Source: Polyangiaceae bacterium | GTDB taxonomy: Bacteria; Myxococcota_A; Polyangia; Polyangiales; Polyangiaceae | Direction: 5' to 3' | Length of the DNA stretch: 64,000 nt | NCBI GenBank assembly: GCA_033763455.1 | Contig: JANRKO010000023.1 | Span: forward strand, 32,001-96,000 | Shown here: positions 9,053 through 26,491 of the stretch, piece by piece | How the letters are laid out: the number at the start of each line of letters is the position of its first letter | How positions within the stretch are numbered: the stretch's first letter is position 1 | The notes under the pieces: generated by a model | Database searches by the model: none | What the model saw: only the letters and a program-made list of their open reading frames with translations | What the model was told of the DNA's origin: nothing | Translations under genes and position numbers: made by a program

Positions 9053-9072
9053 GCATCCATACATCCGGATTG
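9053..9072 (+). promoter_or_regulatory. Candidate SahR autoregulatory operator
   Basis: GCATCCATACATCCGGATTG (ATCC-N8-GGAT) directly abuts the ATG at 9073; TTGACG -35-like hexamer at 9031-9036. Confidence 0.5.
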
Positions 9073-10083
9073 ATGAATGGTTCCTTTGACGCTGTATTGA
9101 GCTGGATGTCAGCTCTCTCGGAGCCTGCCCGGGTGCGGGTCTTGCGTTTGGTTGAGCAGCATGAGCTCAGCGTCGCCGAGCTTTGCCAGGTCCTACAGCT
9201 CCCACAATCCACGACTAGCCGACATCTGAAGCACCTCTGCGATGAGGGGTGGCTTGAGCCCCGAAAGGATGGGCGCAATCGCTACTATCGGATGCGTCGC
9301 TCGCAACTTGGGTCCCCTGCTAGGAAATTTTGGAAGCTGGTGCGTGAGCAATTCGACGAGGACGCGAGCAGCCATGAAGACGACGCTCGGCTTGAGCGGG
9401 TGATGCAAGAACGGCAAACTCAGAGCCAGGCATTTTTTGCGAGCAGCGCGGGCCGTTGGGACAAGCTCCGTTCCGAGCTTTTCGGCGAGCACGTGGCGCT
9501 CACCGCGATTGGCGCCCTATTGCAAGACCAAGTAGTCGCCGATTTGGGCTGCGGCACCGGCCAGCTACTGGAGCTCATTGCGCCTTTTTGCGAACACGCT
9601 TTTGGAGTCGATCAGTCCGCGGCGATGATCAAAAGTGCTCGGCAAAGGTTGAAGAGCCTCTCCAAGGTTACGCTCCTTCGCACCTCCCTCGAAGAACTGC
9701 CACTTGAAGAAGCCTCACTCGACACAGCCCTCATGGTCCTGGTGCTGCACCATCTCCCGCAACCAACCCAAACTCTCGCTGAAGCCTTGCGCGCGCTCCG
9801 CCCGGGTGGGCGCCTGATTGTGCTCGATATGCAGGCCCACGAGCGCGAAGATTACCGCCAACAAATGGGCCATATTTGGCTTGGTTTCAGCGCTGAACAG
9901 TTGCGCTCTTGGTTCACCGAAGTGGGCTTTGCTCGCTTCACTTACACCCCCTTTTCCCCCAACCCGAACGCAAAGGGGCCCTCCCTTTTTGTTGGGGTCG
10001 GATACAAAACCGCATCTGCTGGCGCTTCTGGCTTGGGCTTCTCTAAGCCTCAATCAGAACGCCAGCGGGGCACTCTCAATTGA
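9073..10083 (+). CDS. sahR: ArsR-family HTH fused to class I SAM-binding methyltransferase domain (SahR-type regulator)
   Basis: ALSEPARVRVL..ELSVAELCQVLQLPQSTTSRHLK HTH plus VADLGCGTG SAM motif; immediately upstream of ahcY. Confidence 0.85.
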   Translation: MNGSFDAVLSWMSALSEPARVRVLRLVEQHELSVAELCQVLQLPQSTTSRHLKHLCDEGWLEPRKDGRNRYYRMRRSQLGSPARKFWKLVREQFDEDASSHEDDARLERVMQERQTQSQAFFASSAGRWDKLRSELFGEHVALTAIGALLQDQVVADLGCGTGQLLELIAPFCEHAFGVDQSAAMIKSARQRLKSLSKVTLLRTSLEELPLEEASLDTALMVLVLHHLPQPTQTLAEALRALRPGGRLIVLDMQAHEREDYRQQMGHIWLGFSAEQLRSWFTEVGFARFTYTPFSPNPNAKGPSLFVGVGYKTASAGASGLGFSKPQSERQRGTLN

Positions 10084-10107
10084 ACAAGAAGAAACGAGGC
10101 ATGCACC

Positions 10108-11550
10108 ATGGGTCGACCCAAATTTAAAGTTGCAGATTTATCACTCGCGGAGCTCGGTAGAAAAGAGATCCGCCTCGCCGAACAAGAGATGCCTGGGCTC
10201 ATGGCCCTCCGCAAAACCTACGGTGACAAAGCCCCCCTGCGTGGCGTCAAGGTTGCTGGCTCCTTGCACATGACGGTGCAAACGGCCGTATTGATCGAAA
10301 CCCTTACCGCACTCGGCGCTGACGTGCGTTGGGCATCGTGCAACATCTTCAGCACTCAAGACAGCGCTGCGGCAGCCGTCGCAGTGGGCCCTAAAGGCAC
10401 CGTTGAGAACCCACAGGGGGTTCCGGTGTTCGCTTGGAAAGGCGAAACGCTCGAGGAGTATTGGTGGTGCACCGAAGAGATGCTCACCTGGCCAGACGGC
10501 TCCGGCCCCACGCAGATTGTAGATGATGGCGGCGACGCCACGCTTCTTATCGTGAAGGGTGCCGAGTACGAACGCGCCGGAAAAATCCCCGAGTTCGACC
10601 CCGCCAATGACCCCGCTGAGTGGGGCATTATTTTGGACGTAATGCGGAAAACCGCCAAAACAGAGCCGAAAAAGTGGAGCCGCTTCGCTGAAATGTGCCG
10701 CGGCGTGAGCGAGGAAACAACCACCGGCGTGCATCGCCTGTACGAGATGCAGAAGAAGGGCACCCTGCCCTTCCCCGCTATCAACGTGAACGACTGCGTG
10801 ACCAAGAGCAAGTTTGACAACCTGTACGGCTGCCGCCACTCGCTCATCGACGGCATTAACCGCGCCTCGGACGTCATGCTCGGCGGAAAGGTCGCCGTGG
10901 TTTGTGGTTATGGCGATGTTGGTAAGGGTTGTGCGCAATCGCTTCGCGGCCAAGGCTGCCGAGTGATCGTCACCGAGATTGACCCCATCTGCGCGCTCCA
11001 GGCTGCGATGGAAGGCTACGAAGTGAAGACGCTAGAAGATGTGGTAAGCTCAGCGGATATCTTCGTTACCTGCACGGGCAACAAAGACATCATCACCGTC
11101 GCCCACATGCAAAAGATGAAAGATAAGGCCATTGTGGGCAATATCGGCCATTTCGATAACGAGATCGACATCGCTGGGCTCACCAAGCTAAGCGGCGTTG
11201 AACGCATTCGCATCAAAGATCAGTTTGACGAATGGCGTTTTGCAGACGGCCACAGCATTCTAATGCTCGCCGAAGGCCGCCTCTTGAATCTCGGCTGCGC
11301 CACAGGCCACCCGAGCTTCGTCATGAGCACCTCATTTTCGAATCAGGTATTGGCACAGCTCGAGCTTCACCAGAACCAGGCAAAATACCGCAACGAAGTC
11401 TACGTGCTGCCCAAGCACTTGGACGAAATGGTGGCACGCCTGCATCTCGATAAGCTCGGCGTTAAGCTAACCACCCTCACGAAGTCGCAGGCGGACTACC
11501 TCGGCCTCGCGGTGGAAGGCCCCTACAAGCCCGAACACTACCGCTACTGA
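10108..11550 (+). CDS. ahcY: Adenosylhomocysteinase
   Basis: [56 protein letters not shown]. Confidence 0.98.
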
Positions 11551-11603
11551 GAGTCGCAGCGGTGTAGCCAGAAGGCCTACGAAGTTGCGTAGCCAGAAGG
11601 CGA

Positions 11604-11646
11604 GAGAGAGCCGAGTCAAACCGAGTGTTTGCTCGGCTTTTTCTTT
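11604..11646 (+). terminator. Probable rho-independent terminator after ahcY
   Basis: AGAGCCGAG-TCAAAC..GTTTG-CTCGGCTTT stem followed by TTTTTCTTT. Confidence 0.65.
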
Positions 11647-11701
11647 GGTCGCAGCGGCCATCTCGACAGCCCCGAGCCACCCGGGGTAGAGGGGGGCCCC
11701 T

Positions 11702-12940
11702 ATGGCCAACAAGCTTTTCATCGAGAACGTCGACGTTACGGGCAAGCGCGCGCTAGTTCGCGTGGATTTCAACGTGCCACTCAAGGATGGCGTGGTCGAG
11801 AACGACAAGCGCATCCAAGAGTCGCTACCCACCATCAAGTACCTGTGTTCCAAGGGTGCGAAGGTGATCCTCATGTCGCACCTCGGTCGTCCGGATGGTG
11901 AAAGGAAGCCGGAGCTCAGCCTGCGGCCAGTGGCCAAGGCACTCTCGGCGCTGTTGGGGGCCGAGGTTGCCTTCGTCGAAGAATGCGTAGGCGCGGCCGC
12001 AGAAGCCGCTGTCAACAAGCTCTCGGCGGGAAGCGTCCTCTTGCTAGAGAACGTTCGCTTTCATTGGGAGGAAGAATACATCGACAAGCCGGGCAAGGAG
12101 GATCCCACCAAAGAGGCAGCGGCCAACGAGTTTGCACGCAAGTTGGCAACGCTCGGAGATCTCTACATCAATGATGCTTTTGGTACGGCTCACAGGAAGC
12201 ATGGCTCGACCGCCCGCATCACAGCGTTTCTAAAACCTGCAGCTGCCGGTTACTTGATGAAAAAGGAATTGGATTATTTGGGTGGAGCCCTCACCGAACC
12301 CAAACGGCCGTTCGTGGCTGTGATTGGCGGCTCCAAGGTGTCCAGCAAGCTTAAGGTGCTCGAAAGCCTGCTACCCCGCGTGGATAAGCTGCTGATTGGT
12401 GGCGGCATGACGTACACGTTCTTGAAAGCAAAGGGCCTGGAAGTGGGCAATTCTATTTGCGAGCTCGACCAGGTGGAAAAGGCGCAAAAACTGCTCGCCT
12501 CGGCTCCGGATAAGATCGTATTGGGGGAAGATTTTGTGGTCACCGAAAAGTTGGATTTCGACGCACGCACGGTTTCGCCTACCAAGGTTGTTCCCCAGAA
12601 TGGAATCGCTGCAGGCTGGGAAGCGGTCGATATTGGGCCAGCTTCCACTGAGAAGTTTTCGTCCATCATCGCCAGCGCCAAGACGGTTTTGTGGAACGGC
12701 CCCGTAGGCGTCTTCGAGATCGATGCGGCGGCACGTGGCACAATCGCCGTAGCCGAAGCCATGGCACGCGCAACCGCCGCTGGTGCCACCACCGTCGTTG
12801 GTGGCGGCGATTCAGCCTCTGCCGTGAAGAAAGCCAAAGTGGCCGACAAGGTTTCGCACGTCTCCACGGGCGGCGGCGCCTCGCTTGAGTTCCTCGAGAG
12901 CTTCTCGCTTGTCGGCGTAGAAGCCCTTTCGAACGCCTGA
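11702..12940 (+). CDS. pgk: Phosphoglycerate kinase
   Basis: RVDFNVPL, SHLGRP, NDAFGTAHR, WNGPVGVFE, VSTGGGASLE. Confidence 0.98.
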   Translation: MANKLFIENVDVTGKRALVRVDFNVPLKDGVVENDKRIQESLPTIKYLCSKGAKVILMSHLGRPDGERKPELSLRPVAKALSALLGAEVAFVEECVGAAAEAAVNKLSAGSVLLLENVRFHWEEEYIDKPGKEDPTKEAAANEFARKLATLGDLYINDAFGTAHRKHGSTARITAFLKPAAAGYLMKKELDYLGGALTEPKRPFVAVIGGSKVSSKLKVLESLLPRVDKLLIGGGMTYTFLKAKGLEVGNSICELDQVEKAQKLLASAPDKIVLGEDFVVTEKLDFDARTVSPTKVVPQNGIAAGWEAVDIGPASTEKFSSIIASAKTVLWNGPVGVFEIDAAARGTIAVAEAMARATAAGATTVVGGGDSASAVKKAKVADKVSHVSTGGGASLEFLESFSLVGVEALSNA

Positions 12941-13130: not shown

Positions 13131-15188
13131 TCACGGCCCCACACTCTTCGCACACCGAAACCCAATGCCATGGCTTACCGCTGTGGGCACGTTTGCGTAG
13201 CGAAATGACGGGCGAAGCCAGGACACCATTGAGCCGTTCCATGAGCCGCCACGAATTACTCGCCGCTCACCCGAGGCGGGGCCTGTGGGGTTCTTCTTGT
13301 CGGTGGGATCGTAGTCCACATACCAATCTGCAACCCATTCCCACACGTTGCCCACTACGTCGTAAGGGCCGAAGCGGGAGCGACCTTTGGGGAATTTGCC
13401 GACCGGCGCGGTAGTTGGGAAACCATCATCGCCAGCATAAAGCGCTTCGAGCGGCTGCTTGTTCGCCTTGCCCCAAGCGACACACTCGGCGCCGCAAGCA
13501 TTTAAGTGCTCGGGCGTGGGAGCCTCATCCCCCCACGGATAAACGCGGCCATCGGGACCGCGTGTAGCGTATTCCCATTCTGCTTCCGTGGGCAAACGTT
13601 TGCCCTCTGCCCTGCAGAAGGTATCCGCCTGCTGCCAATCGACGCAGTTGATCGGATGGTCCGTCTTGGCGGGATCGGTGATGGTACAGAGCGCTGAATA
13701 GGTCTCTTTATCGTGGGGTGTGATGTTGGGCCACTCCACCTCCGTGTGCGCGCGCTTGCATTTTCCAGAATCCGAACAGGCTTTGTATTTTGCGGCCGTT
13801 ACCTCGTAAAGATCAATGCAATAGGCCGCGAGTTGCACGTTGTGGGCGGGCTTTTCATTGGCCGGAGCGTCTTTTACGTCTGAGCCCTGGAAGTATTGCC
13901 CGGCTGGGATTTCGGCCATTCCGTCTGGACAGCTCGGCTTGGCTTCGGCCGCTGCAACCGCTGCGGATGGCGTGGCAGATGGCGGCTGTGTTGCCGCAAC
14001 AGATTCAGGTGCTGGCGCCGAACCACGCGTTGCGAAGTAGCCACCAGCCCCCGCAACCACGACAGCCAACCCAAGCCCAACCATCAAACCCGTCTTGCTT
14101 TTGCCTTCGCCCGTTGACGCACCGTGGGTGCTTACCGTGGAAGGTGTGCCTGTCGGTAGGCGGCTACCGGTAGTGCGATCGAGTAATGCCGCCGGAGCAA
14201 GCTCCGTTGCCGCAAACGTGTGATGGGTGACTGCCGCCGGAGACGCAACCTGATTGGCGCAAGCCTGAAGCAGCGCATCCGAGAACTCTTTGGCACGAGC
14301 GAAGCGTTCCCCAGGATTCACGGCCAACGCCTTGGCAAATACCGCTTCCACGGCGTCTGGCACGCTCAGCCCGAGGCTGCGCGGAGTGGGCCGCCGTTCG
14401 GGATTTCCAGAGGCAAAACCCAACTGCACGATATCCTCCCCGTCCAGGCACGAGCGGCGAGTGAGCAGCTCCACACCCACCAAAGCGAGAGCAAACACGT
14501 CTGTCCAAGGGCCGGTGGCGCCGTAGGAACGGCTGAATTGCTCGGGAGCGCCGTAGTGCGGAGTGAAGCTGGTGACGCTCATGCCCGTTTTAGCCAACGC
14601 CGCCTTAAGCTCAGTGTTTTCGTTCATCATCTTAGCGACGCCAAAATCCAAGATCTTCACGACGGAACTGGGCGAGCGCTCCTGCCCGCCGAGCACGAAC
14701 AAATTTGCGGGCTTGATGTCTCGATGCGCGATGCCCTTGCCGTGGGCTACATCGAGCGCGCTACAAACCTGGCTCATCAGCTGAGCCACTTCGCCCAGGC
14801 TCCAAGGCGCTCGCCCTTGAGCACGCTCGCGTTCGAGGAGCTCATCCAGCGCGAGCCCATCCAACCATTCCAACACCATGTAGGGCATCCAATCGCCCTC
14901 GGGGCTGGTGAAGGATGCAACGTCTCGCGCCTGTACAATGCCCGCGGTATGGCTGGAAAGCTCCGTGAGGAGCGCCCCCTCTTGAATGAACGCTTGTTGA
15001 AATTGATCGCGTTGATCGCGCGGCACATGCGAGAGCCCGTTGAAGAACTTGATGGCAACCGGTTTGTTCCAGATCGTGTGCTGGGCGCGGTAAACCACCG
15101 CGAACCCTCCCTCGCCAACGAGCTTCTCGACGCGGTACTTCTCCGCAATGGTGGTGCCAACAATGTTCAGTGGGTCTCGGTCGCTCAT
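13131..15188 (-). CDS. Membrane Ser/Thr protein kinase with C-terminal FGE-sulfatase (SUMF1-like) domain
   Basis: GEGGFA, VAIK, HRDIKPAN, DFG; TM helix GLMVGLGLAVVVAGAGGYF; RLPTEAEWEYA, GNVWEW, RGGSW, IGFRC. Confidence 0.93.
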   Translation of the reverse strand: MSDRDPLNIVGTTIAEKYRVEKLVGEGGFAVVYRAQHTIWNKPVAIKFFNGLSHVPRDQRDQFQQAFIQEGALLTELSSHTAGIVQARDVASFTSPEGDWMPYMVLEWLDGLALDELLERERAQGRAPWSLGEVAQLMSQVCSALDVAHGKGIAHRDIKPANLFVLGGQERSPSSVVKILDFGVAKMMNENTELKAALAKTGMSVTSFTPHYGAPEQFSRSYGATGPWTDVFALALVGVELLTRRSCLDGEDIVQLGFASGNPERRPTPRSLGLSVPDAVEAVFAKALAVNPGERFARAKEFSDALLQACANQVASPAAVTHHTFAATELAPAALLDRTTGSRLPTGTPSTVSTHGASTGEGKSKTGLMVGLGLAVVVAGAGGYFATRGSAPAPESVAATQPPSATPSAAVAAAEAKPSCPDGMAEIPAGQYFQGSDVKDAPANEKPAHNVQLAAYCIDLYEVTAAKYKACSDSGKCKRAHTEVEWPNITPHDKETYSALCTITDPAKTDHPINCVDWQQADTFCRAEGKRLPTEAEWEYATRGPDGRVYPWGDEAPTPEHLNACGAECVAWGKANKQPLEALYAGDDGFPTTAPVGKFPKGRSRFGPYDVVGNVWEWVADWYVDYDPTDKKNPTGPASGERRVIRGGSWNGSMVSWLRPSFRYANVPTAVSHGIGFRCAKSVGP

Positions 15189-15226: not shown

Positions 15227-16063
15227 TCAGATCGGCGAACTCTGGATACTCCCTGCGGTGGGTTCGGTCGCAGGCCCGAGCAGCGCGCCACGTGCTGCTA
15301 GATCGGCAAGCAGGCGAGCTACACCCTGGAGCTCTGACTCGGAGAGCGCAATGCCATGCGCGGAATACGCCTCGGTGAGCGCTTGGCCTAACGTTAACCG
15401 CTTCTGCAACAGGCCTCCCAAGATCTCGGCGGCCACGGGCGACAGCTCTAGGTAACGAACGTCATGCTCTGGACTTCGATAGACCAGTAGATGCGTGCGG
15501 GCAGCCTTGGGCTCCGAGCGATCCTCAATGTCAGCGCTAAGCTGGTGCACCGCGTATTCGTAGCGGACCAAGCGGCAAGCTTCGGTAAACCGCACCCCCC
15601 GTTCGAGCTCCAACCCCTCCGGCACCTCGGGGATAGGTGTATTCACCGCGGCCGCAACTTCAATTCTCAGGGACTCATGGCGCCCCAAATCGTGCGCCCA
15701 AGCGGGGATCCGCGCGTCCACCGGCCAAAGCGGTGCTACGAACGCGAGAAACTCGGGGGTCACGTCGCGCAGGTAGTGAGTGGCTGGTGCCTGTTCACTC
15801 AAAAAACGCTCGAAATATTCGTCAAACAAGCGCCCCAAACGTGCCACCAACCGAGGCATGCCGAGCTCCATCGCGTCACGGAGGGTGGCATGTATCAGGC
15901 GACGATATACGGCTATCTTTGGCATTTGTTGGCGTAGCTCTTCACGCTCTGCCTCCGCCAAATCTAGCTTGGCCAAAGCCGCTGCGACGGCGTCCGGATC
16001 AGTCGCGTCGAATTCGCGGCTAAATACCACGTGCTCAAACAGCGTTTCACGCGCTTCTTGCAC
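15227..16063 (-). CDS. DUF2063/HvfC-like MNIO partner protein
   Basis: AVYRRLI..L....P.L...LG..F...F..F....Y..D...EF..F....DL..HE and R.EY.VH patterns; GTG at 16063 with GGAG RBS overlaps the 3' end of the DUF692 gene. Confidence 0.75.
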   Translation of the reverse strand: MQEARETLFEHVVFSREFDATDPDAVAAALAKLDLAEAEREELRQQMPKIAVYRRLIHATLRDAMELGMPRLVARLGRLFDEYFERFLSEQAPATHYLRDVTPEFLAFVAPLWPVDARIPAWAHDLGRHESLRIEVAAAVNTPIPEVPEGLELERGVRFTEACRLVRYEYAVHQLSADIEDRSEPKAARTHLLVYRSPEHDVRYLELSPVAAEILGGLLQKRLTLGQALTEAYSAHGIALSESELQGVARLLADLAARGALLGPATEPTAGSIQSSPI

Positions 16064-16952
16064 GGCGTTCGCTCTCCCTTCGTGCGACGTGCATCGAAAG
16101 CGCCCGCTGATACACACCCTCGAGTTCGCTCACCTCCCGTACCAATTCCGGCAACGGTGGGACCTTGTTGTCACGCTCTAGCAAGACGGGCAAAGGCCCC
16201 GTTCGTTCAATCACCCACGTCAGAAGGTCACTCACACCGGGAACGACAGGAGCACCATGGGTGTCCACCAGCATGCCCCAAGAGGAGCTTTCGTGCCCGG
16301 CGATGTGCACCTCCACCACTTTCTCAAGTGGCAGTTTTCGGAGATAATCTAACGCTTCAAAACCGTGATTTCGGGCGTTCACGAACACGTTGTTCACATC
16401 CAACAACAGGCTCGCCCCACTTCTGTGGAGCAATTCACCGATAAAGTCCGCTTCCGGGATCTCTCCCGAGCCCGGCGCCGCATAATACGTAATGTTTTCA
16501 ATCACGATCGGTACATTCAAGTCGCCCTCTAGGCGCTGAATGCGTTCACTCGTGCGTGCCAACGAGGCTTTGGTAAAAGCCATCGGCAAAAGCTCATGTG
16601 TCATCCTTCCCCCCGTGTGAGAGAACGAAAGGTGATCAGAATGCCAAGGCGACTTCACGCGCTCAACTTCTGCGCAGAGTGCGCGTACGAAGCTCGGCTC
16701 CGGCTCGCGCATACTCCCTAAAGAGAGAGTAAGCCCGTGCGTTACCAACGCATAGCGCTCCCCCACTCGCTCCAGCACCTCCGGATAATAGCCCCCCCGC
16801 TGCATATAATTTTCTGGCGATACCTCCAGGAAAGCTAAGGCAAGCTGGGGCGCCTCCAGCAGCTCTTCGAGAAAATCCCAACGCAGGCCCAACCCCACTC
16901 CCGGTGGTAACCGGTGTTTTTCGGTGCCGCCCGAAGGAGTGAGGTTAGCCAT
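16047..16952 (-). CDS. DUF692 family multinuclear non-heme iron oxidative enzyme (MNIO; MbnB/TglH/ChrH/HvfB family)
   Basis: GVGLGLR, EVSPENY, HGLTLSLG, SDHL, IENI, LLDVNN, HIAGH, DTHG, LLERD metal-ligand motifs. Confidence 0.93.
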   Translation of the reverse strand: MANLTPSGGTEKHRLPPGVGLGLRWDFLEELLEAPQLALAFLEVSPENYMQRGGYYPEVLERVGERYALVTHGLTLSLGSMREPEPSFVRALCAEVERVKSPWHSDHLSFSHTGGRMTHELLPMAFTKASLARTSERIQRLEGDLNVPIVIENITYYAAPGSGEIPEADFIGELLHRSGASLLLDVNNVFVNARNHGFEALDYLRKLPLEKVVEVHIAGHESSSWGMLVDTHGAPVVPGVSDLLTWVIERTGPLPVLLERDNKVPPLPELVREVSELEGVYQRALSMHVARRESERRARSA

Positions 16953-16967
16953 GCGAGCAGCGAAACC

Positions 16968-17360
16968 TTAGCCGCAGGTTCCTGCCCCACAACCTGCTTT
17001 GGCGCCCGCCATCTTCTTCTTGGCAGGCTTCTTTGCGGGAGCTGCTGCCGCAGGCGCCGCATCCGCTGCTTCGCCTTCGGGCTTGGCTTCAGGTTTCGCT
17101 GCTGTGGCAGCGTCAGCCGCTGGCTTCTCTGTTGCCGACGCCGGTGCTTCCGGTGCGGCCTCGGCCGGCGCTTCGGGTGTGGCGGCATCAGCGGGTGCTT
17201 CTGGTGCGGCGGCGGCATCAGCGGCAGGGGCCTCGGCTGGGACCTCCGTGGCTTGAGCGGCGCTTTCGGGTGCAGGGGTAGCAGACCCACAGGCCACCAA
17301 GCCCGAAGCACTCAGAGCGGCCAAGGTTGCGGCAATCGCGGGAAATGAAAGTTTATGCAT
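16968..17360 (-). CDS. Lipoprotein RiPP precursor candidate with Ala/Pro/Glu/Lys tether and C-terminal CGAGTCG
   Basis: AAGGAG RBS; signal peptide with lipobox LVAC (Cys24); low-complexity linker; only two other Cys, both in the last 7 residues; first gene of the DUF692 operon. Confidence 0.8.
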   Translation of the reverse strand: MHKLSFPAIAATLAALSASGLVACGSATPAPESAAQATEVPAEAPAADAAAAPEAPADAATPEAPAEAAPEAPASATEKPAADAATAAKPEAKPEGEAADAAPAAAAPAKKPAKKKMAGAKAGCGAGTCG

Positions 17361-17388
17361 GATGACTAACTCCTTCTAACTCAATGGA

Positions 17389-17414: not shown

Positions 17415-17493
17415 GACTTTCTGGAAAGCCAACCACATCCGGGCAAGCGCATAAGGGTACGCCCATTCGCCACCAGAGTTACAGCCCCGAGCC

Positions 17494-19371
17494 TCAGCCA
17501 GGCCAGAGCGCTTCGCGCAGGCCCGAAACACGCCGAACTGGCCGCTCGACTGCCGCACGGAGACTGGCCCCGGCTCCGACAATGGTGACGCGCTTTTTGG
17601 CGCGGGTGACGCCCGTGTAAAGCAGCTCTCGGGTGAGCAAGGGAGAGGTGGCTTCCGGCAACACAAGAACCACGTGGTCAAACTCTGAGCCCTGACTCTT
17701 GTGAATGCTCATGGCGAACACCGTTTCGTGCGCCGGAAGCCGGCTGGGTGCCAGATCGCGCACCTTGCTGTCTTGCGCCAAAAAGTGCGCGCGGGGTGTA
17801 CCCCTCGCTGCCGTGGGCAGGACCACTCCGATATCTCCATTGAACAGCCCCACTTGGTAATCGTTGCGTGTGATGAGAATGGGCTGGTGAGCGTACCAGC
17901 GCCCGCTTCTCTGAATCATGCCTGCATGGCGAAGAATATCTTCGATGATGGGGCCAAGCGTGAGCACGCCGTAGGGGCCGCGCCGGTGAGCGCACAGCAC
18001 TCGGAATTCTTCGAGTGCCGAAAGCGCCGCGAGCGGCTCGGTGGCTTTGCAGAACGGCCGGTAACCGTCACGCACCGGCTTGGCGAGAGCTTTGGCGAGC
18101 CGTGCTGGGTCTGAAAGATCCACCCAAGAAACATCGGAGAACTCCTCAGCTTCCAGCACTTCGAGCGCACCCCCCACATTGCCCTCGCGGATGGCCGACG
18201 CCAAGTTCCCGATCCCGCTTTGCCCTTGAAACCGGTAGCTGCGTGTAAGCTCCACCACTGAATCGGACATGGGGGAGGCGCTACCCACACCTTTGGGCAA
18301 CTCACCCACAAACGGCAACAGTATATCGCGAAGGCCTGCCGAGTAGTTCAAGCTTCCCGCCCCGGCCGAGATGTCCCCCAGCACGGCACCTGCCTCTACG
18401 GAAGCCAATTGGTGGCGATCTCCCATCAATACAAGCCGCGCATTCAGCGGTACGGCCTCCACCAAGCGACGCATCAAAGCCACGTCCACCATGGAAGCTT
18501 CGTCGACCACCACCGCGTCTACGGGGAGTGGATTCTCTCGATTGTAGCGAAAATCCGTGGAGCTCCCACCGATGCTTCCTAAGGCTCGATGGATGGTGGA
18601 AGCATCCTCCGGGATGAGAGCTTGGATGTCTGCGTCTACCGGAAGGGCGGCTTTGGCTCGCTGTACTGATCCCACCAGCCGTGCGGCCGCTTTGCCGGTG
18701 GGGGCGAGCAATTTCACCGCAAACTGGGCGTTATTCTGGCGCCGCGCTTGCTCGGCCCACAGCGCCAACACCTTCACCACTGTTGCCGTTTTGCCGGTGC
18801 CGGGGCCACCCGTGATCACTAAGAGCGGCTGAAGGCTTGCGAGCACGGCCGCCAACCGTTGCCTATCGAGCTCCGCGCCTATCGGACCAAACAAACGATC
18901 GACCTGGGCGCGTTCGAGCACTCCGTGGTTCGTTGTACCGCGCGAGGCCACCCGTGCTTGGAGCATTTCCGCCAGACGCTGTTCGTGTTCAAAATAACGC
19001 CTCAAATAGAGCCGTGTACCTTGCAGCACGAAAGGCGTCCGGGCCGCGGCATCTCCGACGAGCGGCGAAGAGTTAAGAGCCGAGTGCCACACTTCCGAAG
19101 TGGGCCACCGAAAGGCTTTGGCCCAGAGATCAAGACTGGCCCAACGGGCATCCGCTAAGCTCTGCCCCTCGGGATCGAAGATGGGCGTGCCGGCAAACTC
19201 AGTAAGATCCAAACAGACGTGGCCCTCGCGTGTTTGGCGGCTCGCCAGGGCCAGGGCCAACAAAACGGGCTCGGTCACGCCATCCACGAGCTTGGCCAAC
19301 GCTTTGGCGCAATGAAGATCTAGCGAAGAAAAATATCCGCTTCTGGCGAGCTGCTCCAACACCTGGCTCAT
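17494..19371 (-). CDS. recD: Exodeoxyribonuclease V alpha subunit
   Basis: GHVCL, LYLRRY, GGPGTGKT, VDEASMVD, QLASVEAG, SIHKSQGSEF, ELLYTGVTRA. Confidence 0.96.
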   Translation of the reverse strand: MSQVLEQLARSGYFSSLDLHCAKALAKLVDGVTEPVLLALALASRQTREGHVCLDLTEFAGTPIFDPEGQSLADARWASLDLWAKAFRWPTSEVWHSALNSSPLVGDAAARTPFVLQGTRLYLRRYFEHEQRLAEMLQARVASRGTTNHGVLERAQVDRLFGPIGAELDRQRLAAVLASLQPLLVITGGPGTGKTATVVKVLALWAEQARRQNNAQFAVKLLAPTGKAAARLVGSVQRAKAALPVDADIQALIPEDASTIHRALGSIGGSSTDFRYNRENPLPVDAVVVDEASMVDVALMRRLVEAVPLNARLVLMGDRHQLASVEAGAVLGDISAGAGSLNYSAGLRDILLPFVGELPKGVGSASPMSDSVVELTRSYRFQGQSGIGNLASAIREGNVGGALEVLEAEEFSDVSWVDLSDPARLAKALAKPVRDGYRPFCKATEPLAALSALEEFRVLCAHRRGPYGVLTLGPIIEDILRHAGMIQRSGRWYAHQPILITRNDYQVGLFNGDIGVVLPTAARGTPRAHFLAQDSKVRDLAPSRLPAHETVFAMSIHKSQGSEFDHVVLVLPEATSPLLTRELLYTGVTRAKKRVTIVGAGASLRAAVERPVRRVSGLREALWPG

Positions 19372-22300
19372 GGCTGCACCTGAATTGGCGCAGATGAAAC
19401 TTGCCCAAAGAGATCGTCTAAAGCGCTGACCAGCCGCTCCTCGGGGCGATCGAAGAATACGCCCGTCTTGTTGGCATTGATTGGGCTCATGCCGCGCAAG
19501 AACAAGTAGAACACGCCCCCGAAGTGACGCTCATAGCTATAGCCCCGTAGCTTCTGCCGGAGGTAACGATGCAGCGCCAAGGTGTAGAGGTGGTACTGCA
19601 AGTAGTAGTGGTGATCGGCCATTGCCCCCTTGAGCTCATCGGCGGAATAATCTCGATAACGCGGCCCGAGGTAATTGGACTTGTAATCCGCCACATAGAA
19701 CAAGCCTTCGTGTTCGAACACCAAATCGATAAAGCCCCGCAAGAAGCCTTCGAGCGGCACGAAGTTCAAACGCCCAAGCTCACTCGGGTAATGTTTAGGG
19801 ATGGGAGCATTTTTGCCAGCGCCCAGCTCCAAGACGCTTGCTAGATCACGTGGGGTGAGGCGCCGCTGCCCTTCAGCGTGAACTGGCAACGTAAACTCCA
19901 ATTCGTTCAGGCGCTTCTTTTGGTCAAGCTTTGCCAGCGTAAGTGTATTGGGTGAATCCAGTAGCGGCGTTTGCAGTACTTCAGATAGCCCGCGCCCCAA
20001 AGCCGGCCCCAAGGCGACGGTGGAAAGCCCCGTGAGCTCAAGAAAGGGGGCGGCTACGGCTTGGATCTTGTCTGGGGCAACCTCAGAAAAATCGAGATTC
20101 TCCAGCACCGAATGGAGCAATGTTCCGGGTCGAGCCCCACGGGGAAACTGCTCCAGCGTTACCAAACCACCGGTACCGCTCGCCGAAACGACTGCCGAGG
20201 GCGCCTCACCCTCGTCGTCCCAATCCCGCCCCAGCTCGACCGTAGGCGCCAGGCGCACCGACGCACCCTTCGTGAGCCCCGAGAAGCTGGAGCTCCGAAA
20301 ATGGGAAGCCAACACTCGCGACAACTTTAGAGCCTCACCCGTTTGGCGTGGTGCTTCAAAAGAAACGTAGGGCTCGGCGGGCCCAGGATGTAACTCGGCA
20401 ACGGCAACGCTTCCCCCCGAACGGACACACAGCGCGTTCAACTCTTGCAGCATCTCCTGATCGGTCAAACCTTTGAGCCGAGCCGCCACCGTATCAGGTG
20501 TTGCCAAGAAATCCCCGCGCTGCGAATGCAGAATGTAGCCCAACGCGGAATAACGGAAATCAGTACCCACGGCTCCCCACGCCACGACCACACGGTGCTT
20601 GGCACGAGTGAGCGCCACGTACAGGAGCCTCAAATTCTCAGCTAACTTTTCGCGCTCAGCGAGGGCTTTAACCTCTTCTTTTTCGTCGGTGGCCCGCACG
20701 TCCAGCTTCACTTCTTCTACATTTTCCGGCTCATGATAGATGAGCTGTTGTTCTTCGGTGGCAAACAGGAGCGTGCCGTCCCAAAGATAGGGGCAATAGA
20801 CAATCGGGTATTCGAGCCCTTTGCTCCGATGCACCGTGGTGAGCTGAACTGCCAAAGCGTCGCTTTCAAGCCGAATTTGCTGCGCTTCAGGCGCGATCCC
20901 GTCGCGCGATCCGCGATCGTGGCGCATCTCATCGAACCACTGGAGCACGCCACTCACCCCCAGGTGTTGCGAGCACGCCTGACTATGCAGAAGCTCCCCA
21001 AGGTGCAAAAGATTAGTAAGCCGGCGTTCACCGTCTATCCACGCCAGGATCCGCTCGTGCGCCCGGCACTCGGTGAGAACCTGGCGCAGCATTTGAAACA
21101 CACCTCGCCGTTGCCATGTTTCGTTCCAGCGGTGAAAATCTTCCACCCAGCGTTCCCACCCGGCCTCATCTTGCTCAAGGGCAAAAAGGTCGTCGGCGGT
21201 CTGTCCGAAGAGTGTGGTTGCGAGAGCCACTCTAACCGCACGCTGGCTGTTTGGCTCCGCTACCGCACGCAGCACAAACCCGAGCTCCCGCGCCTCAGGT
21301 GCATCAAACACCGAAGTATCGCCGTGCAGTACGCTCGCCACGCCGAGCGCCCGAAGCTCGGCTTGCACCAATAGCGCCTGACGGTTGGTGCGCGTCAAAA
21401 CCGCGATATCCCCTGGCCGAACTCCGCGCTCCCCAATCTTGGCTCCGCTCTTTAGGCTCGCAGAAATCTCCCGGGCCACGAGCGCCGGAAGCGTTGTTTC
21501 GCTCCAGTGTTTTGAAAGCGCTTGGCCCGGCTTAGCACTCCGCGGATTGAGCACATTTCGCCCCAGAAACTGCAATTCCACCGGTGGCAAGCGCTGCCCA
21601 TTGAGAGTGAGCTTATCCGTAGCACCCGGCCGAGCCGCGACGTGAACGTAACGAATATCTTCAAAGATGAAGGGGTTCTGCACCCCTTCAAACACGGTGT
21701 TCACGGCCTCAACCAGGCTTGGGTCGCTGCGGAAGTTCGTGGCCAACGTGTAGGTGTTGGGCTCCGCATCGCGTGCGGCCTTGAGGTACGCAAAAATGTC
21801 GGCACCACGGAACGCGTAGATGGCCTGCTTTGGGTCTCCAATGAGAAAAAGCGTGCTCTTTGGTCTCTCCTTCGGTTCCCCTGGGGTGTTGGAATAGATG
21901 CGCCGGAAGATCGCGTATTGGGTTGGATCGGTATCCTGAAATTCGTCGATGAGTGCCGCCGGATAACGCTCTTCAATTGAACGCGCCAAGGCAACGCCAG
22001 CATCGCTGGTGACAGCCGCGTGCAGCTGATTCAGAAGATCGTCGAACGATTGAACCCCTGCAAGCTCTTTGCGCTTTGGGAATTCGCTTCGAACGTATTC
22101 GACCAGCTTGGCAACACAGCGGCGGCGCCACTCTTCGAGGGATTGGGCAGCGATCTTGTACGCATCCACTAGCTCTTGAATTGCTCCAAAAGCCGGATTT
22201 TGTGGGGTGATCTTATTCTTGTTGGTCTTCTCTGCGAGAACTCTCGACCCAAAGTTTTCGACTTTGTCGAACCAGCCGTGGAGCGTCACTCGTGTTTCTT

Positions 22301-23093
22301 TGGCTAAGCCGTCTAGCTGTTCGAGCCAAGAACCAATCGAATCTAGTTTATACGTAGTGCGAGAGAGCGCCGTGGTGGTCAAAAGGAGCTGCTCGACCCT
22401 ATCCCGTTCCTGAGCCCACACCTCGGCAAAGCGAGCCCGCGCTGCCACAAACGCCGAGAGGGCATCCGGCGTGCCTCTGCCACTTGGCGCAGGAACCACT
22501 TGGATGTTCGGGAAGCCAGCCACCGTGCGAGCCAACTGGATCAAGTCGAGCAGATCTGTATGACTCTGCTTGAGATATTGGACCTCAGCTTCGCTCGCTT
22601 CGAACAGCTCTCGCGTCCAGAAATCCTGCACCAGCTCCGTAAGCAATGGCCGCACGTCAGCGGAAAGCTTAAGATCAAAACGGAGACCGCTTTCAAACGC
22701 GTATTCTCCGAGCACTCGCTGGCAGAAGCCGTGGATCGTAAACACCTGGGCCGCATCGAGAGTGGCGAGCGCTAACCGAAGGCGCCGCGTGGCATCTTCA
22801 CGTGGAATATCCGCCGCAATTTGCAAGATTTCCGGATCTTCCGCCGATTGCGCGGACTCATCCGCACTCAAGACGTCAAACGCCGAACGCAGGCGTTTGC
22901 GGATCCGTGCACGCAGTTCAAAGGTGGCCGCTTCAGTGAACGTTACTACCAATATCTGTTCAACGGAAAGCTTCCGCTCCAGCAAGAGGCGGAGATAAAG
23001 CGTGGTGATGGTGTGGGTCTTCCCTGTTCCGGCGCTCGCTTCAATGAGCTCTGTCCCAAAGAGGGGCACCTGCAGGGGGTCCAGGACCTTCAT
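19368..23093 (-). CDS. recB: Exodeoxyribonuclease V beta subunit
   Basis: IEASAGTGKT, DEFQDTD, GDPKQAIYAFRGAD, YVALTRA, nuclease GFIDL..DYKSN. Confidence 0.96.
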   Translation of the reverse strand: MKVLDPLQVPLFGTELIEASAGTGKTHTITTLYLRLLLERKLSVEQILVVTFTEAATFELRARIRKRLRSAFDVLSADESAQSAEDPEILQIAADIPREDATRRLRLALATLDAAQVFTIHGFCQRVLGEYAFESGLRFDLKLSADVRPLLTELVQDFWTRELFEASEAEVQYLKQSHTDLLDLIQLARTVAGFPNIQVVPAPSGRGTPDALSAFVAARARFAEVWAQERDRVEQLLLTTTALSRTTYKLDSIGSWLEQLDGLAKETRVTLHGWFDKVENFGSRVLAEKTNKNKITPQNPAFGAIQELVDAYKIAAQSLEEWRRRCVAKLVEYVRSEFPKRKELAGVQSFDDLLNQLHAAVTSDAGVALARSIEERYPAALIDEFQDTDPTQYAIFRRIYSNTPGEPKERPKSTLFLIGDPKQAIYAFRGADIFAYLKAARDAEPNTYTLATNFRSDPSLVEAVNTVFEGVQNPFIFEDIRYVHVAARPGATDKLTLNGQRLPPVELQFLGRNVLNPRSAKPGQALSKHWSETTLPALVAREISASLKSGAKIGERGVRPGDIAVLTRTNRQALLVQAELRALGVASVLHGDTSVFDAPEARELGFVLRAVAEPNSQRAVRVALATTLFGQTADDLFALEQDEAGWERWVEDFHRWNETWQRRGVFQMLRQVLTECRAHERILAWIDGERRLTNLLHLGELLHSQACSQHLGVSGVLQWFDEMRHDRGSRDGIAPEAQQIRLESDALAVQLTTVHRSKGLEYPIVYCPYLWDGTLLFATEEQQLIYHEPENVEEVKLDVRATDEKEEVKALAEREKLAENLRLLYVALTRAKHRVVVAWGAVGTDFRYSALGYILHSQRGDFLATPDTVAARLKGLTDQEMLQELNALCVRSGGSVAVAELHPGPAEPYVSFEAPRQTGEALKLSRVLASHFRSSSFSGLTKGASVRLAPTVELGRDWDDEGEAPSAVVSASGTGGLVTLEQFPRGARPGTLLHSVLENLDFSEVAPDKIQAVAAPFLELTGLSTVALGPALGRGLSEVLQTPLLDSPNTLTLAKLDQKKRLNELEFTLPVHAEGQRRLTPRDLASVLELGAGKNAPIPKHYPSELGRLNFVPLEGFLRGFIDLVFEHEGLFYVADYKSNYLGPRYRDYSADELKGAMADHHYYLQYHLYTLALHRYLRQKLRGYSYERHFGGVFYLFLRGMSPINANKTGVFFDRPEERLVSALDDLFGQVSSAPIQVQP

Positions 23094-26000
23094 GAGTTGT
23101 CACCTTCCAGATGCTCCAAGAGGGGCTCAAAGATGCGGGTGCTCAAGTCAACGAACCCCGGAGCGTGAGCGAGAGCTAGCACTGGTGTGAGCTCTTCTGA
23201 AATCGGCTCGACCGCAGAGAAGCAACAATTCACATAGAGGTTGTCACGCTCCGCGGCTCCCCGATCCGCGCGATCTACGCCGAACCCTTTGCCGCTAAAA
23301 ACATCGCGGGCCGCATCCAGCGCTAAAGAAGCCGCGTGTTCCTGACCGGCCCTCTTATGGTACGTCGTTACGTACGCCTTCGACGCGTCGGGAAAGAACG
23401 GCAGCGGCACCTGCTGCCCGAGCCGATACAAGCTCACCAAATCCTCAAGAACTGCCCGGGCTCTTTCAGGCCTAACTGGCCGAAAAACGCACACTTTTGG
23501 CATATTGGACTTCGCATCGCCCCGGCCAATCAAGACACTCTGCCGCGGCAGCTTGCCCGCCTCTGCGCACTGGAGCGCCAGGTGCCAAATCCAAACTCCC
23601 AACTCACGCTTTGCTTTCACGCGCCCAAACTGCCGCCTCACCTGTGCCTTCGGCCAAAGATTAGTAAAGGCCCCGTCGAGCTCACACCCTGAAAGTGCTA
23701 GCGAGAATCGCTGTGGTTCCAGGCGCTCGCCAGAAAGCCAGGGTAACGCTGCCCGAGCCAGTTGCTCCGCTTCGTCGGCGACACGTTGATACACGCAGCG
23801 CCCGGGAGTACCGAGCGGCAGAGTTCCCATTGCGCGAGCAAGCAAGAGCGAATCTTCCAAGCTTGCGCCCCCTAAAAGGCGTTCCAAAAGATCAGCACCG
23901 ATGCCCCAACGGTCGAGTGCGCTTGGATCGATCGGTTCGCGATCAGCGACTAACTCTGGCTCATCTCTCAGCGACAAACTCAAGCGGCCCGTCAGAAACG
24001 CACGCGCCGGCAACTCAAAAAATGAGGCCAACTTCTCCACCGAAAGCCTCGCCTCAAAGACTTCGGGCAATGGCCGCACCTGAAATAGGGGACGATCCGC
24101 CCTGCTGCCTGCCAGAGCCCTGGCACCTTTGGCTTCAGGCTCGGCGTAGCTGAACCAGCGCGCATCCCGACCGTGTTCGAAATACCGGGGGCTAAACGCT
24201 TGTAACGGATGCTCCAGGAGAAATTGCTCACTCACCGGCGTGGCCTTCTGCGGTCGCTCGGCGCCGTTTTGGGGTGCCTGCTGAGAAACACAGAAGCTCT
24301 CGTTGAGCGTGTCGAGGAGCTCGCCCACCACCACCGACGGTGGGCGCTCTTTGTTGTCATGCGGATCTCGCCCCACGTAGGTGATGATCAACGCATCTCG
24401 CGCAGCCAACACGGCTTCCAAGAACAAGTAGCGATCTTCATCGCTGAGCGAGCGATCTCCGAGGCGTGGCTTTTGCGCAATCTTATCGAACGCGAGCTTG
24501 GGCGTTGACCGAGGAAAGCCTCCATCGTTCATGCCCAAAAGGCCCACCACGCGAAAAGGGATGCTGCGCATGGGCAAGAGCGCGCAAAAAGTGACCCCAC
24601 CGGTCATGAAATCGTGATGGGTGCGCTCATCTTCGAACGAGCGACGAAGCACCAACTCCATCGTTCTGAGATCTAGCTGCTCTGAAAACCGAGCTTTTTC
24701 GGCCAAGTTCACCAACTTGCCGATCGTTTCGCGCACGAAAACGAAATCCGCTTCCAGGGCCGCCTCACCCCCCAGCACTTCATCCAACAGTCGCCCGAAC
24801 GCTACCTGCCATTGGCGAGCCGTTTTGGGGCGTTGAAAGTTAGACCGAAACTCAAAGAGCTTTTGACAGAAATTCGCCAGCTGCCCAAGGACGACTGCAC
24901 CTGAACCTTCGACGCCATCCACGGGCAAGACGCCCTCAAAGAGGGAGTTAGCCTGAACGGGCATTGCCCAGCCCAAAAGCAGGCGCAAAAGCCCCAATTC
25001 CCACGTATTTTCTGGCACCTCGGGCTGCAAGAGCTCGCCCCTGTGCGCTTCATTTTCGCCCCAGCGGATACCGGAACGGAACACCCAGTGCCGGATCTGA
25101 CTGAGATCTGCACCCGAGAGGCTGAGCCTGGATTGCACCAATGGCAACCCTAACAAATCCAACACCTCACTGGCCTTCAGCCGGCCGCTCAAGAGACTGA
25201 CCACCGCTACAAAGGCTTCGGCGGCTGCGCTCGAAGCTCGAAGGCTGCGATCGGCGATGCGATACGGAATATGCCCGAGCGAGCCGGGCTCACGATCGAA
25301 TACAGCATCCAGAATGGGCGCATAAGCCTCAACATCCGGCATCATCACGATGACGTCGTGTGGCAAAAGCGTTGGGTCAGCTTCGAACCGTGCGAGCAGC
25401 TGATCCCGAAGGACTTCTACTTCACGAATCGGGCCGTGGCAGGCGTGCACCGTAATGCTGGTGTCTTTCGGATCGACGGGCGCTGGAGCAGCTTGATCGC
25501 TTCTGGGCGCTCGATGCACCAGATGCAGAATATCGTGCTGCAAGAGGCCGAGCGCGGTATCCTTACGCGGCTCCACGTAGAGATCGCTTCCGCTCTCCAC
25601 GTAGTCCACTCGGCTCTCCAACACCTGCTGAAAATCTCGACCCAAACGCCCCAACGACGCGAGGAGCGGATTTTCCAGGGTGAAGTGCTGCGCCTGCCAA
25701 TCCGCTTCAGATGGCTGCAGCCTCGCTAACTCCTTGGGCGAACGAACATGCCCCAAATATTCACGCGATGGGCTCAACTGAAATAAATGCACCGGGCAAT
25801 GTTTGGATAAGCTCCGGAGCACATCCAGATAGATCGGAGGGAGCGAAGAGATGCCAAATACACTGATACGCTCCGGGAGCCCCGCGGGCGCCAGCCGCGC
25901 ACGCTCCATGGCTTGCACGAGCTCTTCAACGTGAGTTGGCGCAACCCCTTCCCCGTGCACCGCCAAAAGCTTCTGCCACAACTCCGCTTGCCAACCATCC

Positions 26001-26491
26001 TCTTCGCCTTTGGCGAAAGCGCGAATCAACTCGGGGCGATAAACCGCGTATTGGTCGAAGATCTGGGCGATTTTATCGGAGAGCTCGAGGCGCCGGGAGA
26101 GTGCGTGGTCTCCCTGGATATAGCGGGCAAGTTCTGAAAATTTCGGATTCTCCAAGAGCTCAGGCAAAATGGCCGCTATCGACCAAGCGAGCGCCGGGCG
26201 ACTGAAGGGCTCCGCGACTCGACCCTCCGGACTCACTCCGGCCTGGCTGTTGACGCTGGGGACGAAAAGGCCGGAAAGCTGCGCCACGCAGGCCTTCGGG
26301 AATGGGAAAGCCACATTCGCCCAAACGCCAAGCTTCTGAGCCAGAAACATAGAGAGCCAACGCTCCATGCCTTTGCTTTGCACCAGGATCGTTTCCCGCT
26401 CAAAGGGCGTGCTCAACGGCTGACTCACTACCGCCAAGAGCGCTTCGGCGAGCACCTCCACCCGGTTACTGCGATGCACCGAAATGGGCAC
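23090..26491 (-). CDS. recC: Exodeoxyribonuclease V gamma subunit
   Basis: SNRVEVLA, VQSKGMERWL, FDQYAVYRP, CHGPIREVEVL, PMRSIPF, DRYLFLEA; ATGA-type overlaps join recC-recB-recD. Confidence 0.95.
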   Translation of the reverse strand: MPISVHRSNRVEVLAEALLAVVSQPLSTPFERETILVQSKGMERWLSMFLAQKLGVWANVAFPFPKACVAQLSGLFVPSVNSQAGVSPEGRVAEPFSRPALAWSIAAILPELLENPKFSELARYIQGDHALSRRLELSDKIAQIFDQYAVYRPELIRAFAKGEEDGWQAELWQKLLAVHGEGVAPTHVEELVQAMERARLAPAGLPERISVFGISSLPPIYLDVLRSLSKHCPVHLFQLSPSREYLGHVRSPKELARLQPSEADWQAQHFTLENPLLASLGRLGRDFQQVLESRVDYVESGSDLYVEPRKDTALGLLQHDILHLVHRAPRSDQAAPAPVDPKDTSITVHACHGPIREVEVLRDQLLARFEADPTLLPHDVIVMMPDVEAYAPILDAVFDREPGSLGHIPYRIADRSLRASSAAAEAFVAVVSLLSGRLKASEVLDLLGLPLVQSRLSLSGADLSQIRHWVFRSGIRWGENEAHRGELLQPEVPENTWELGLLRLLLGWAMPVQANSLFEGVLPVDGVEGSGAVVLGQLANFCQKLFEFRSNFQRPKTARQWQVAFGRLLDEVLGGEAALEADFVFVRETIGKLVNLAEKARFSEQLDLRTMELVLRRSFEDERTHHDFMTGGVTFCALLPMRSIPFRVVGLLGMNDGGFPRSTPKLAFDKIAQKPRLGDRSLSDEDRYLFLEAVLAARDALIITYVGRDPHDNKERPPSVVVGELLDTLNESFCVSQQAPQNGAERPQKATPVSEQFLLEHPLQAFSPRYFEHGRDARWFSYAEPEAKGARALAGSRADRPLFQVRPLPEVFEARLSVEKLASFFELPARAFLTGRLSLSLRDEPELVADREPIDPSALDRWGIGADLLERLLGGASLEDSLLLARAMGTLPLGTPGRCVYQRVADEAEQLARAALPWLSGERLEPQRFSLALSGCELDGAFTNLWPKAQVRRQFGRVKAKRELGVWIWHLALQCAEAGKLPRQSVLIGRGDAKSNMPKVCVFRPVRPERARAVLEDLVSLYRLGQQVPLPFFPDASKAYVTTYHKRAGQEHAASLALDAARDVFSGKGFGVDRADRGAAERDNLYVNCCFSAVEPISEELTPVLALAHAPGFVDLSTRIFEPLLEHLEGDNS

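Follow-up and report, generated by a model that had tools for sequence, protein, structure and literature searches.

The three-gene cluster described here, found in the genome of a Polyangiaceae bacterium (GenBank assembly GCA_033763455.1), probably produces a lipid-anchored peptide of the captophorin type, with predicted thiooxazole rings that, under metal stress, would capture surplus copper in the cell envelope. To this reading, which is drawn from sequence comparison, we assign a probability of roughly 0.6. The cluster lies in a stretch of 64,000 nucleotides (contig JANRKO010000023.1, positions 32,001 to 96,000 of the forward strand), which is called the window from here on. Its genes, all on the minus strand, encode in this order the precursor, an MNIO (DUF692) enzyme and a DUF2063 partner.

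The precursor and MNIO genes are separated by 15 bp, and the MNIO and partner genes overlap by 17 bp. Coordinates and Pfam matches thus agree with the original prediction, made earlier from the same DNA, of an operon of precursor, DUF692 and DUF2063-like genes with a 15-bp gap followed by an overlap. The recD gene lies 133 bp upstream of the precursor, while a gene for a Ser/Thr kinase-FGE fusion is found 38 bp downstream of the partner. The features of the locus, in window positions, are the following:

17458..17483, minus strand: predicted promoter motif of the extracytoplasmic function (ECF) type, TGTAAC-N16-CGTA, 122 nt before the precursor ATG
17370..17376, minus strand: strong Shine-Dalgarno sequence of the precursor, GAAGGAG
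16968..17360, minus strand: precursor gene, 130 aa (P0001)
17289..17360, minus strand: signal peptide with its lipobox L-V-A-C24, where cleavage by signal peptidase II and attachment of the lipid are predicted
17238..17246, minus strand: residues 39-41 (EVP), a motif that conservation marks as a candidate for recognition
16992..17288, minus strand: linker of 99 residues (Ala/Pro/Glu/Lys), first acidic and then rich in Lys, with predicted disorder
16971..17000, minus strand: core tip KAGCG-AGTCG, two x-x-x-C-G units, with Cys124 and Cys129 as predicted MNIO targets
16047..16952, minus strand: MNIO (DUF692) enzyme, 301 aa (P0002), PF05114
15227..16063, minus strand: PME1 partner (DUF2063 plus NGO1945_C/RRE), 278 aa (P0003), GTG start with Shine-Dalgarno sequence
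13131..15188, minus strand: Ser/Thr kinase-membrane segment-FGE-like fusion (from Pfam), possible fourth gene of the operon

The precursor contains cysteines at positions 24, 124 and 129 only. The first belongs to the lipobox of what is likely, from its sequence, a lipoprotein of the signal peptidase II type, and the host genome encodes both Lgt and LspA. The anatomy is the one described in the original prediction, namely a lipobox LVAC, a low-complexity arm and a CGAGTCG end that holds the remaining cysteines. Specifically, the 99 residues between Cys24 and Cys124 include 44 Ala, 16 Pro, 11 Glu and 9 Lys but just 2 large hydrophobic residues, with a net charge of -9 over residues 25-77 and of +6 over residues 106-123, and correspond to a contour length of about 36 nm. 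An AlphaFold model built on a 41-sequence alignment contains the signal helix only (residues 6-20; pLDDT 58.9, low confidence), and is compatible with disorder of the arm, though no proof of it; a structure search of the Atlas returned no match above TM 0.4. That such an anatomy exceeds chance is indicated by two observations: a CGxGxC[GSA] ending occurs in 5 of the 85,856 stop-to-stop segments of the genome, and a genome screen for a lipobox together with the repeat returned two open reading frames (ORFs), the precursor and one paralogue. Moreover, the last 14 codons differ from those of the three closest relatives by 8-9 synonymous changes and 0-1 non-synonymous ones.

On the basis of sequence comparison, the three-gene layout is that of a family conserved in a large set of myxobacteria from soil and sediment. 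The MNIO search covered the best 80 of 550 confirmed loci, mostly from Polyangiaceae, other Polyangiales and Nannocystaceae; here and below, counts are not independent, since loci recur between sets and the genomes are related. A complete lipobox precursor is found at 67 of the 80 loci (60 called by an automatic rule and 7 by eye), which bears out the expectation that lipobox and tip would be conserved beside DUF692 homologues. Among the remaining 13, five are cut by a contig end and retain a Cys motif, and eight lack a precursor; five of these eight genomes were searched, three of them carrying a tip-bearing precursor elsewhere and one giving a tipless best match. Forty of the 60 automatically called precursors resemble the query and, together with it, keep C24, C124, G125, G127 and C129 invariant (41/41). 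The single two-Cys tip that had been claimed is the commonest form, as 32 of the 40 query-like relatives carry exactly two core cysteines on a linker of 75-110 residues, but it is not fixed, the others having 3-6. The other 20 precursors, mostly from Nannocystaceae, combine the lipobox Cys (20/20) with a shorter linker and E-G/A-S-C-G/S units, in which Glu comes first in 78 of 78 cases; these are referred to as the EGSCG type.

Further searches give a similar picture. Starting from a loose tip pattern, an MNIO gene follows in 14 of 30 loci, all 14 with a lipobox. The wider tally of the corresponding DNA pattern (81 of 151) was left unused, since a control pattern also matched many genomes; 16 of the 30 loci had no MNIO gene. 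A precursor profile matches 55 of 101 genomes of the same family, a figure in which the weak matches may be low-complexity noise; its top 29 non-self loci comprise 29 with a lipobox, 25 with an MNIO gene scored as adjacent by an automatic distance rule, 24 with a C-terminal tip and 20 with two core cysteines. In databases, 33 homologues were found among 8000 scored entries, all unnamed hypothetical proteins except two from Nannocystis, which UniRef labels 'Lipoprotein'.

This conservation also bears on whether the anchor is permanent. If signal peptidase I cut the precursor, or if the tip were released at the Lys-rich stretch, the anchor would be absent or transient and the product a soluble small metallophore. 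Hydrophobicity of the h-region is no more than moderate (mean 1.9) and 4-7 Lys/Arg residues precede the tip in 39 of the 40 relatives, as such a release would accommodate. Nevertheless, every one of the 60 precursors found by the automatic rule has an [AG]-Cys pair at position 21-30, the UniRef label points to a lipoprotein and no protease recurs beside the tip-type loci, which makes a soluble product highly improbable.

The chemistry proposed for the tip follows from its resemblance to captophorins. The sequence KAGCG-AGTCG consists of tandem five-residue units closing in Cys-Gly, spaced as in the EGKCG pairs of oxazolin and fontiphorin. It was assigned to the EGKCG class on the strength of the graded series of relatives, of weak matches to the HvfA model (NF050137; 2 of 41 query-type and 2 of 20 EGSCG-type precursors) and of a paralogue in the same genome that ends in three EGKCG units. 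The tip is therefore likely to be a degenerate pair of captophorin EGKCG units, with two copper-binding 5-thiooxazoles as its likely product.

The enzymes are consistent with this chemistry. By Pfam, by BufB and HvfB scores and by motif residues, the MNIO and its partner appear to be a pair of the bufferin/oxazolin type, as the original prediction had held. The MNIO matches PF05114 with an E-value of 2.8e-85, and the partner matches PF09836 (28.2 bits, cut-off 27.2) and PF22106 (E 2.8e-16). Scores of the MNIO are 257.8 bits to BufB (cut-off 310) and 254.3 to HvfB (cut-off 360), compared with 111.8 to ApyH, 55.5 to ChrH and 33.1 to MbnB. Residues H72, H107, E152, N188, H216, D230, H232, E259 and D261 are present in 81 of 81 orthologues and D185 in 80 of 81; they cover the iron-binding motif and the proposed catalytic Asp, with ligand roles as in MbnB and TglH, mapped through an alignment to 3bww. 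At the positions of RR and DF in the solved Histophilus MNIO, the enzyme has RW and DN. The partner found no match among PDB sequences, and the MNIO tree, a quick version, serves for description only. According to the published passages on characterized MNIO-PME1 pairs, all of them install 5-thiooxazole (PMC13097082); a single AEGKCGEGKCG unit of HvfA undergoes a mass change of -8 Da (PMC11252979), the oxazolin rings have since been reassigned as thiooxazoles, and characterized thiooxazole peptides generally bind copper. By analogy, conversion of the tip cysteines to copper-binding thiooxazoles by this iron enzyme pair is predicted. FonBC, in particular, needs a substrate of at least two repeats and accepts Ala or Thr at unit position 3 and Gly at position 5, but rejects Pro anywhere and Arg at position 1 (PMC13097082).

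A different chemistry on the CxxxxC tip, such as one ring and a free thiol, a macrocycle like those of ChrH/DybH or a disulfide loop, appears very unlikely. It would agree with the departure of the tip from EGKCG (6 of 10 positions are those of the FonA core), with an MNIO that scores under the cut-offs of the named families and with the short C-terminal two-Cys core, which recalls chryseobasins. However, these have a CPxCGxG core and a ChrH-type enzyme, and neither is found here: the ChrH score is low, the enzyme has just 301 aa and its partner is a true DUF2063 protein.

Taken together, these elements outline the mechanism that we propose for the anchored copper-binding peptide. An ECF sigma factor would fire the G(A/T)AAC-N16-CGTA promoter; in the cytoplasm, MNIO and partner would then oxidize Cys124 and Cys129 to 5-thiooxazoles (-4 Da each). 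A requirement for two tandem units would explain why the lone lipobox Cys is left unmodified, despite its substrate-like LVACG context. Subsequently, Sec, Lgt and LspA would export the peptide and lipidate Cys24, with Gly at +2 suggesting routing to the outer membrane. Finally, the disordered arm of about 100 residues would allow the tip with its two rings to search the periplasm without being lost from the cell.

How the enzymes might recognize the precursor is suggested by a short motif in the arm. EVP is present in 37 of 41 family members, 8-18 (mostly 15-18) residues past the lipobox Cys, as against 1.4 expected. Among 251 lipobox-like ORFs in the genome, one has it there; none of 12 precursors of the Buf2 type and of other kinds from the phylum has it. 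Because it is conserved in the family and rare in other lipobox ORFs, EVP is offered as a candidate site by which this enzyme pair, in particular the partner protein, might recognize the precursor. Caution is advised by HvfA, whose N-region is reported to be dispensable (PMC11252979). The signal peptide was set aside as a leader, being dispensable in BufA1 and HvfA in the published passages. As for the linker, an Ala/Pro-rich one follows the lipobox in 4 of the 251 ORFs, 3 of which are MNIO precursors.

An involvement of metal stress is suggested by the promoter, which is likely, by its sequence, an ECF-type promoter of a stress response. The motif G[AT]AAC-N16/17-CGT[ACG] lies upstream in 33 of 39 query-type loci (one locus with a short flank was dropped), compared with a mean of 0.3 and a maximum of 3 in shuffled sequences and with 0 on the reverse strand. 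Of the 20 EGSCG-type loci 2 have it, and by eye several display a GATC...CGTAAC variant; among 30 MNIO loci sampled across the phylum the count is 12, again with 0 on the reverse strand. A scan for sigma-70 promoters and terminators gave none above shuffled sequences. In the query genome the motif precedes three other transcription units: a BufA2-like lipoprotein gene on contig C84 (TGAAAC-N16-CGTA), a second MNIO operon of the BufB type (a single-genome site), and an MsrP-like gene with a PepSY-like membrane gene, the latter recognized by eye (L119:2239-3597, contig C47). Orthologues of the MsrP-like gene carry it in 18 of 29 relatives, with a shuffle mean of 0.27 and 0 of 71 control windows. 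This gene set suggests a counterpart, without NrsF, of the SigF metal-stress regulon of Caulobacter, which comprises two MNIO operons and YedY behind GTAACC-N16-CGAA and is induced by chromate and cadmium (PMC3511200).

As a possible driver, an ECF sigma factor of the CorE type, with a Cys-rich tail, was considered and rejected, no matching motif being seen at its locus. Its gene (G000:C16:63979-69212) stands beside heavy-metal P-type-ATPase-like and efflux-like genes, recognized by eye, and represents a separate metal system. The passages of the CorE papers contain no usable promoter consensus, and the literature, searched for this motif in Myxococcus, gave a single paper, which was not relevant.

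A number of observations weigh against the proposed copper-binding role and its regulation. Genome-wide the motif is not enriched, with 15 occurrences at N16 versus 4-15 at other spacers and 23 versus 17-20 near gene starts, so that it is conservation across species that carries the regulon claims. The motif lies upstream of 0 of 40 ECF-size genes checked, and NrsF was not found in the genome (93.7% complete) by a search that detects the Caulobacter control. The SigF inducers named in the published passages are chromate and cadmium (PMC3511200). At the level of the peptide, the precursor matches no Pfam or NCBIfam model, the best HvfA-model match in the query-type set has an E-value of 0.033, and both enzymes score under the BufB, HvfB and HvfC cut-offs. 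Moreover, unit position 1, at which FonBC rejects Pro and Arg, is Lys in 36 of 98 family units, including the first unit of the query, and Pro in 8 of 98. Covariation between the second Arg of the enzyme and the substrate Glu was looked for and is unsupported, 1 of 20 EGSCG-type enzymes having RR. The M. xanthus +7 Ala sorting rule holds in the query but in only 10 of 40 relatives. Lastly, two rings are a low metal capacity for a buffer.

This low capacity, together with the gene set behind the motif, would also fit a peptide of the same lipidated, ring-bearing kind that chiefly protects the envelope from oxidation (by HOCl, or of thiols driven by metals) as a thiol/redox element, sacrificial or recyclable, instead of serving as a copper sink. 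The motif shared with the MsrP-like gene argues for it, as do the YceI-like gene found upstream in 31 of 37 query-type loci (at the query locus recD takes its place) and the divergent position of the EGKCG paralogue to a cysteine-synthesis operon. The affinity of characterized thiooxazole peptides for copper argues against it. In addition, according to the passages on Caulobacter, SigF targets are not induced by peroxide, paraquat or diamide (PMC3511200). On balance we regard a mainly redox role as unlikely.

Neighboring genes raise the further question of signaling. The kinase-FGE gene comes directly after the partner at 35 of 37 query-type loci and at none of 20 EGSCG-type loci, and is kept even where the upstream neighbor has changed, as with recD in the query clade. 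The tip might be a sensor or relay: through its extracytoplasmic FGE-like domain the kinase would detect how far the tip is loaded with metal and would signal this inward, possibly to the ECF factor; the failure to find an NrsF anti-sigma factor and an arm long enough to reach the inner membrane would be in line with this. On the other hand, the kinase also adjoins four MNIO genes without an adjacent precursor (L013, L029, L033 and L049), as plain synteny predicts, and the synteny count comes from related genomes. Its FGE-like domain lacks catalytic cysteines, when compared with what we take to be the FGE catalytic motif. We therefore hold a sensing role to be a long shot. Equally doubtful is the fuller version in which the tip is a signaling ligand that shows metal to the FGE-like domain and thereby switches on an NrsF-less ECF regulon of operon, Buf2 lipoprotein and MsrP. 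If true, this would make a RiPP (a peptide synthesized ribosomally and modified after translation) the sensing half of a bacterial envelope signaling system.

With respect to known systems, the proposed anchored copper-binding peptide comes closest to the DAG-RiPPs. These lipoprotein-RiPP hybrids, of which triacylated and modified DybA and NedA were shown in 2026 (Chen et al., PNAS; PMC13056109), share a lipobox precursor handled by an MNIO and a partner, core cysteines C-terminal to the anchor and modification in the cytoplasm before export, the order also proposed here. NedA of Neisseria dentiae has three canonical EGKCG units, whereas the present family has one degenerate pair, an Ala/Pro arm of 75-110 residues, EVP, and a promoter and synteny of its own. 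Consequently, the lipoprotein-RiPP hybrid is an idea already published, and the novelty implied in the original prediction was overstated. Its statement that bufferin and oxazolin precursors carry cleavable Sec signals is likewise outdated, as lipoprotein signals are reported among both (PMC13056109) and in about 16% of Buf2 precursors (PMC12452194). An uncharacterized CxxxxC lipoprotein 'Cluster X', listed in the former paper, could include this family; the two are set side by side by description only. In the main texts consulted, we found no published description of the long-armed myxobacterial family, its promoter or its kinase linkage, which thus appear undescribed.

Captophorins (HvfA, FonA and gonophorin; PMC13097082, PMC11252979, 10.64898/2026.06.05.730506) have in common with it the gene order precursor-MNIO-PME1, the tandem five-residue units ending in Cys-Gly and the CGxGxCG spacing. 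They differ in that HvfA has a signal cleaved by signal peptidase I and an hvf operon with DoxX, in place of a lipobox and no DoxX, and in that HvfA and FonA bear 6 and 7 rings with a Lys-Cys dyad, as opposed to two Cys preceded by Gly or Thr. The precursor has neither the EGKCG repeats nor the NF050137 match that define the HvfA/Buf_EGKCG precursor family. The Caulobacter bufferins and SigF system (10.1101/2024.03.18.585515; PMC3511200) resemble it in the MNIO operons, the MsrP/YedY-like gene, the GTAACC-type ECF promoter (predicted here) and a Buf2-like precursor behind the shared motif in the query genome. Caulobacter has, however, CGAA as its -10 and NrsF, in contrast with CGTA and no NrsF found; furthermore, its bufferin is a folded periplasmic miniprotein, whereas the precursor studied here is predicted to be unfolded and lipid-anchored.

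The CxxxxC family (Antoine et al. 2025, PMC12452194), compared by description, shares the signal peptide, the CxxxxC spacing (C124-G-A-G-T-C129) and the DUF2063 partner, but counts DoxX among its core genes and contains Lactamase_B_2 in 54% of its clusters; here, neither gene was detected. DoxX is absent from the cluster, as had been noted earlier, the single DoxX found in the genome being on another contig. A DoxX tblastn and an HxHxDH motif scan, both weak probes, gave 0 of 80 loci for DoxX and Lactamase_B_2 in flanks of up to 4 kb, and a Pfam scan of 52 neighbors gave none. The likeness to the AAEAP lipoproteins of Neisseria (Laz azurin, peroxidase and AniA; PMC10094543) is architectural: they also combine a lipid-Cys, an Ala/Glu/Pro linker and a distal metal site, but carry folded metalloprotein domains and not a modified tip.

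This family bears on what DAG-RiPPs do and on why a cell would tether a metal-binding peptide. It would represent a minimal DAG-RiPP, with one predicted lipid, one predicted disordered arm and two cysteines, a design that would allow stoichiometry, metal selectivity and the role of tethering to be tested free of the aggregation that multi-repeat captophorins are reported to undergo. It would also mean that myxobacteria possess a SigF-like stress regulon of MNIO and MsrP genes, one with a defined promoter. Specialists would see in this a useful extension; only a real kinase link would make it surprising.

The query genome encodes two further precursors with a predicted tether. The EGKCG paralogue (G000:C19:183953-184312, or L084:4454-4813 minus) has a lipobox, an Ala/Pro linker, AKEVPA and an end of three EGKCG units. 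It is an orphan, divergent to an operon that by eye reads Rrf2-cysK-moeB/thiF-thiS-cysK-Mov34-like; the setting recurs in one genome of the same genus (L116), a search of 121 family genomes for its DNA pattern yielded two, each belonging to this genus, and no ECF motif was seen upstream. The C84 gene (C84:27810-28151, or L118:5810-6151 minus) encodes an orphan BufA2-like lipoprotein of 113 aa with an Ala/Pro/Glu linker and a Cys-rich C-terminal domain, which matches the BufA2 model at E 3.7e-10, under its cut-off. The second MNIO, above the BufB cut-off, lies with its partner at L081:249-3329 (G000:C23, about 260-263 kb), with no adjacent precursor, in an operon behind a gene of 404 aa that we take to be DUF1343/NamZ-like. 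This second pair probably serves the C84 precursor in trans. At least 8 of the 30 MNIO loci of the phylum sample have, by eye, Buf2-type precursors with lipobox and linker, which indicates that anchoring is a common myxobacterial habit and not peculiar to this locus.

Some variants of the layout deserve mention. At two loci (L007:3568-3891 and L061:830-1267), lipobox low-complexity ORFs without core Cys occupy the precursor position, and the L007 genome carries a tip-bearing precursor elsewhere. Six Nannocystis loci (L031, L036, L038, L048, L050 and L060) show an inverted layout, with 2-3 DGSCG-type units near the lipobox and an Ala/Pro C-terminal tail. In the window itself, positions 9070-12940 hold, by eye, ArsR-methyltransferase, ahcY and pgk genes on the plus strand, while recC-recB-recD (17494-26491) lie directly upstream of the cluster, an arrangement confined to this clade.

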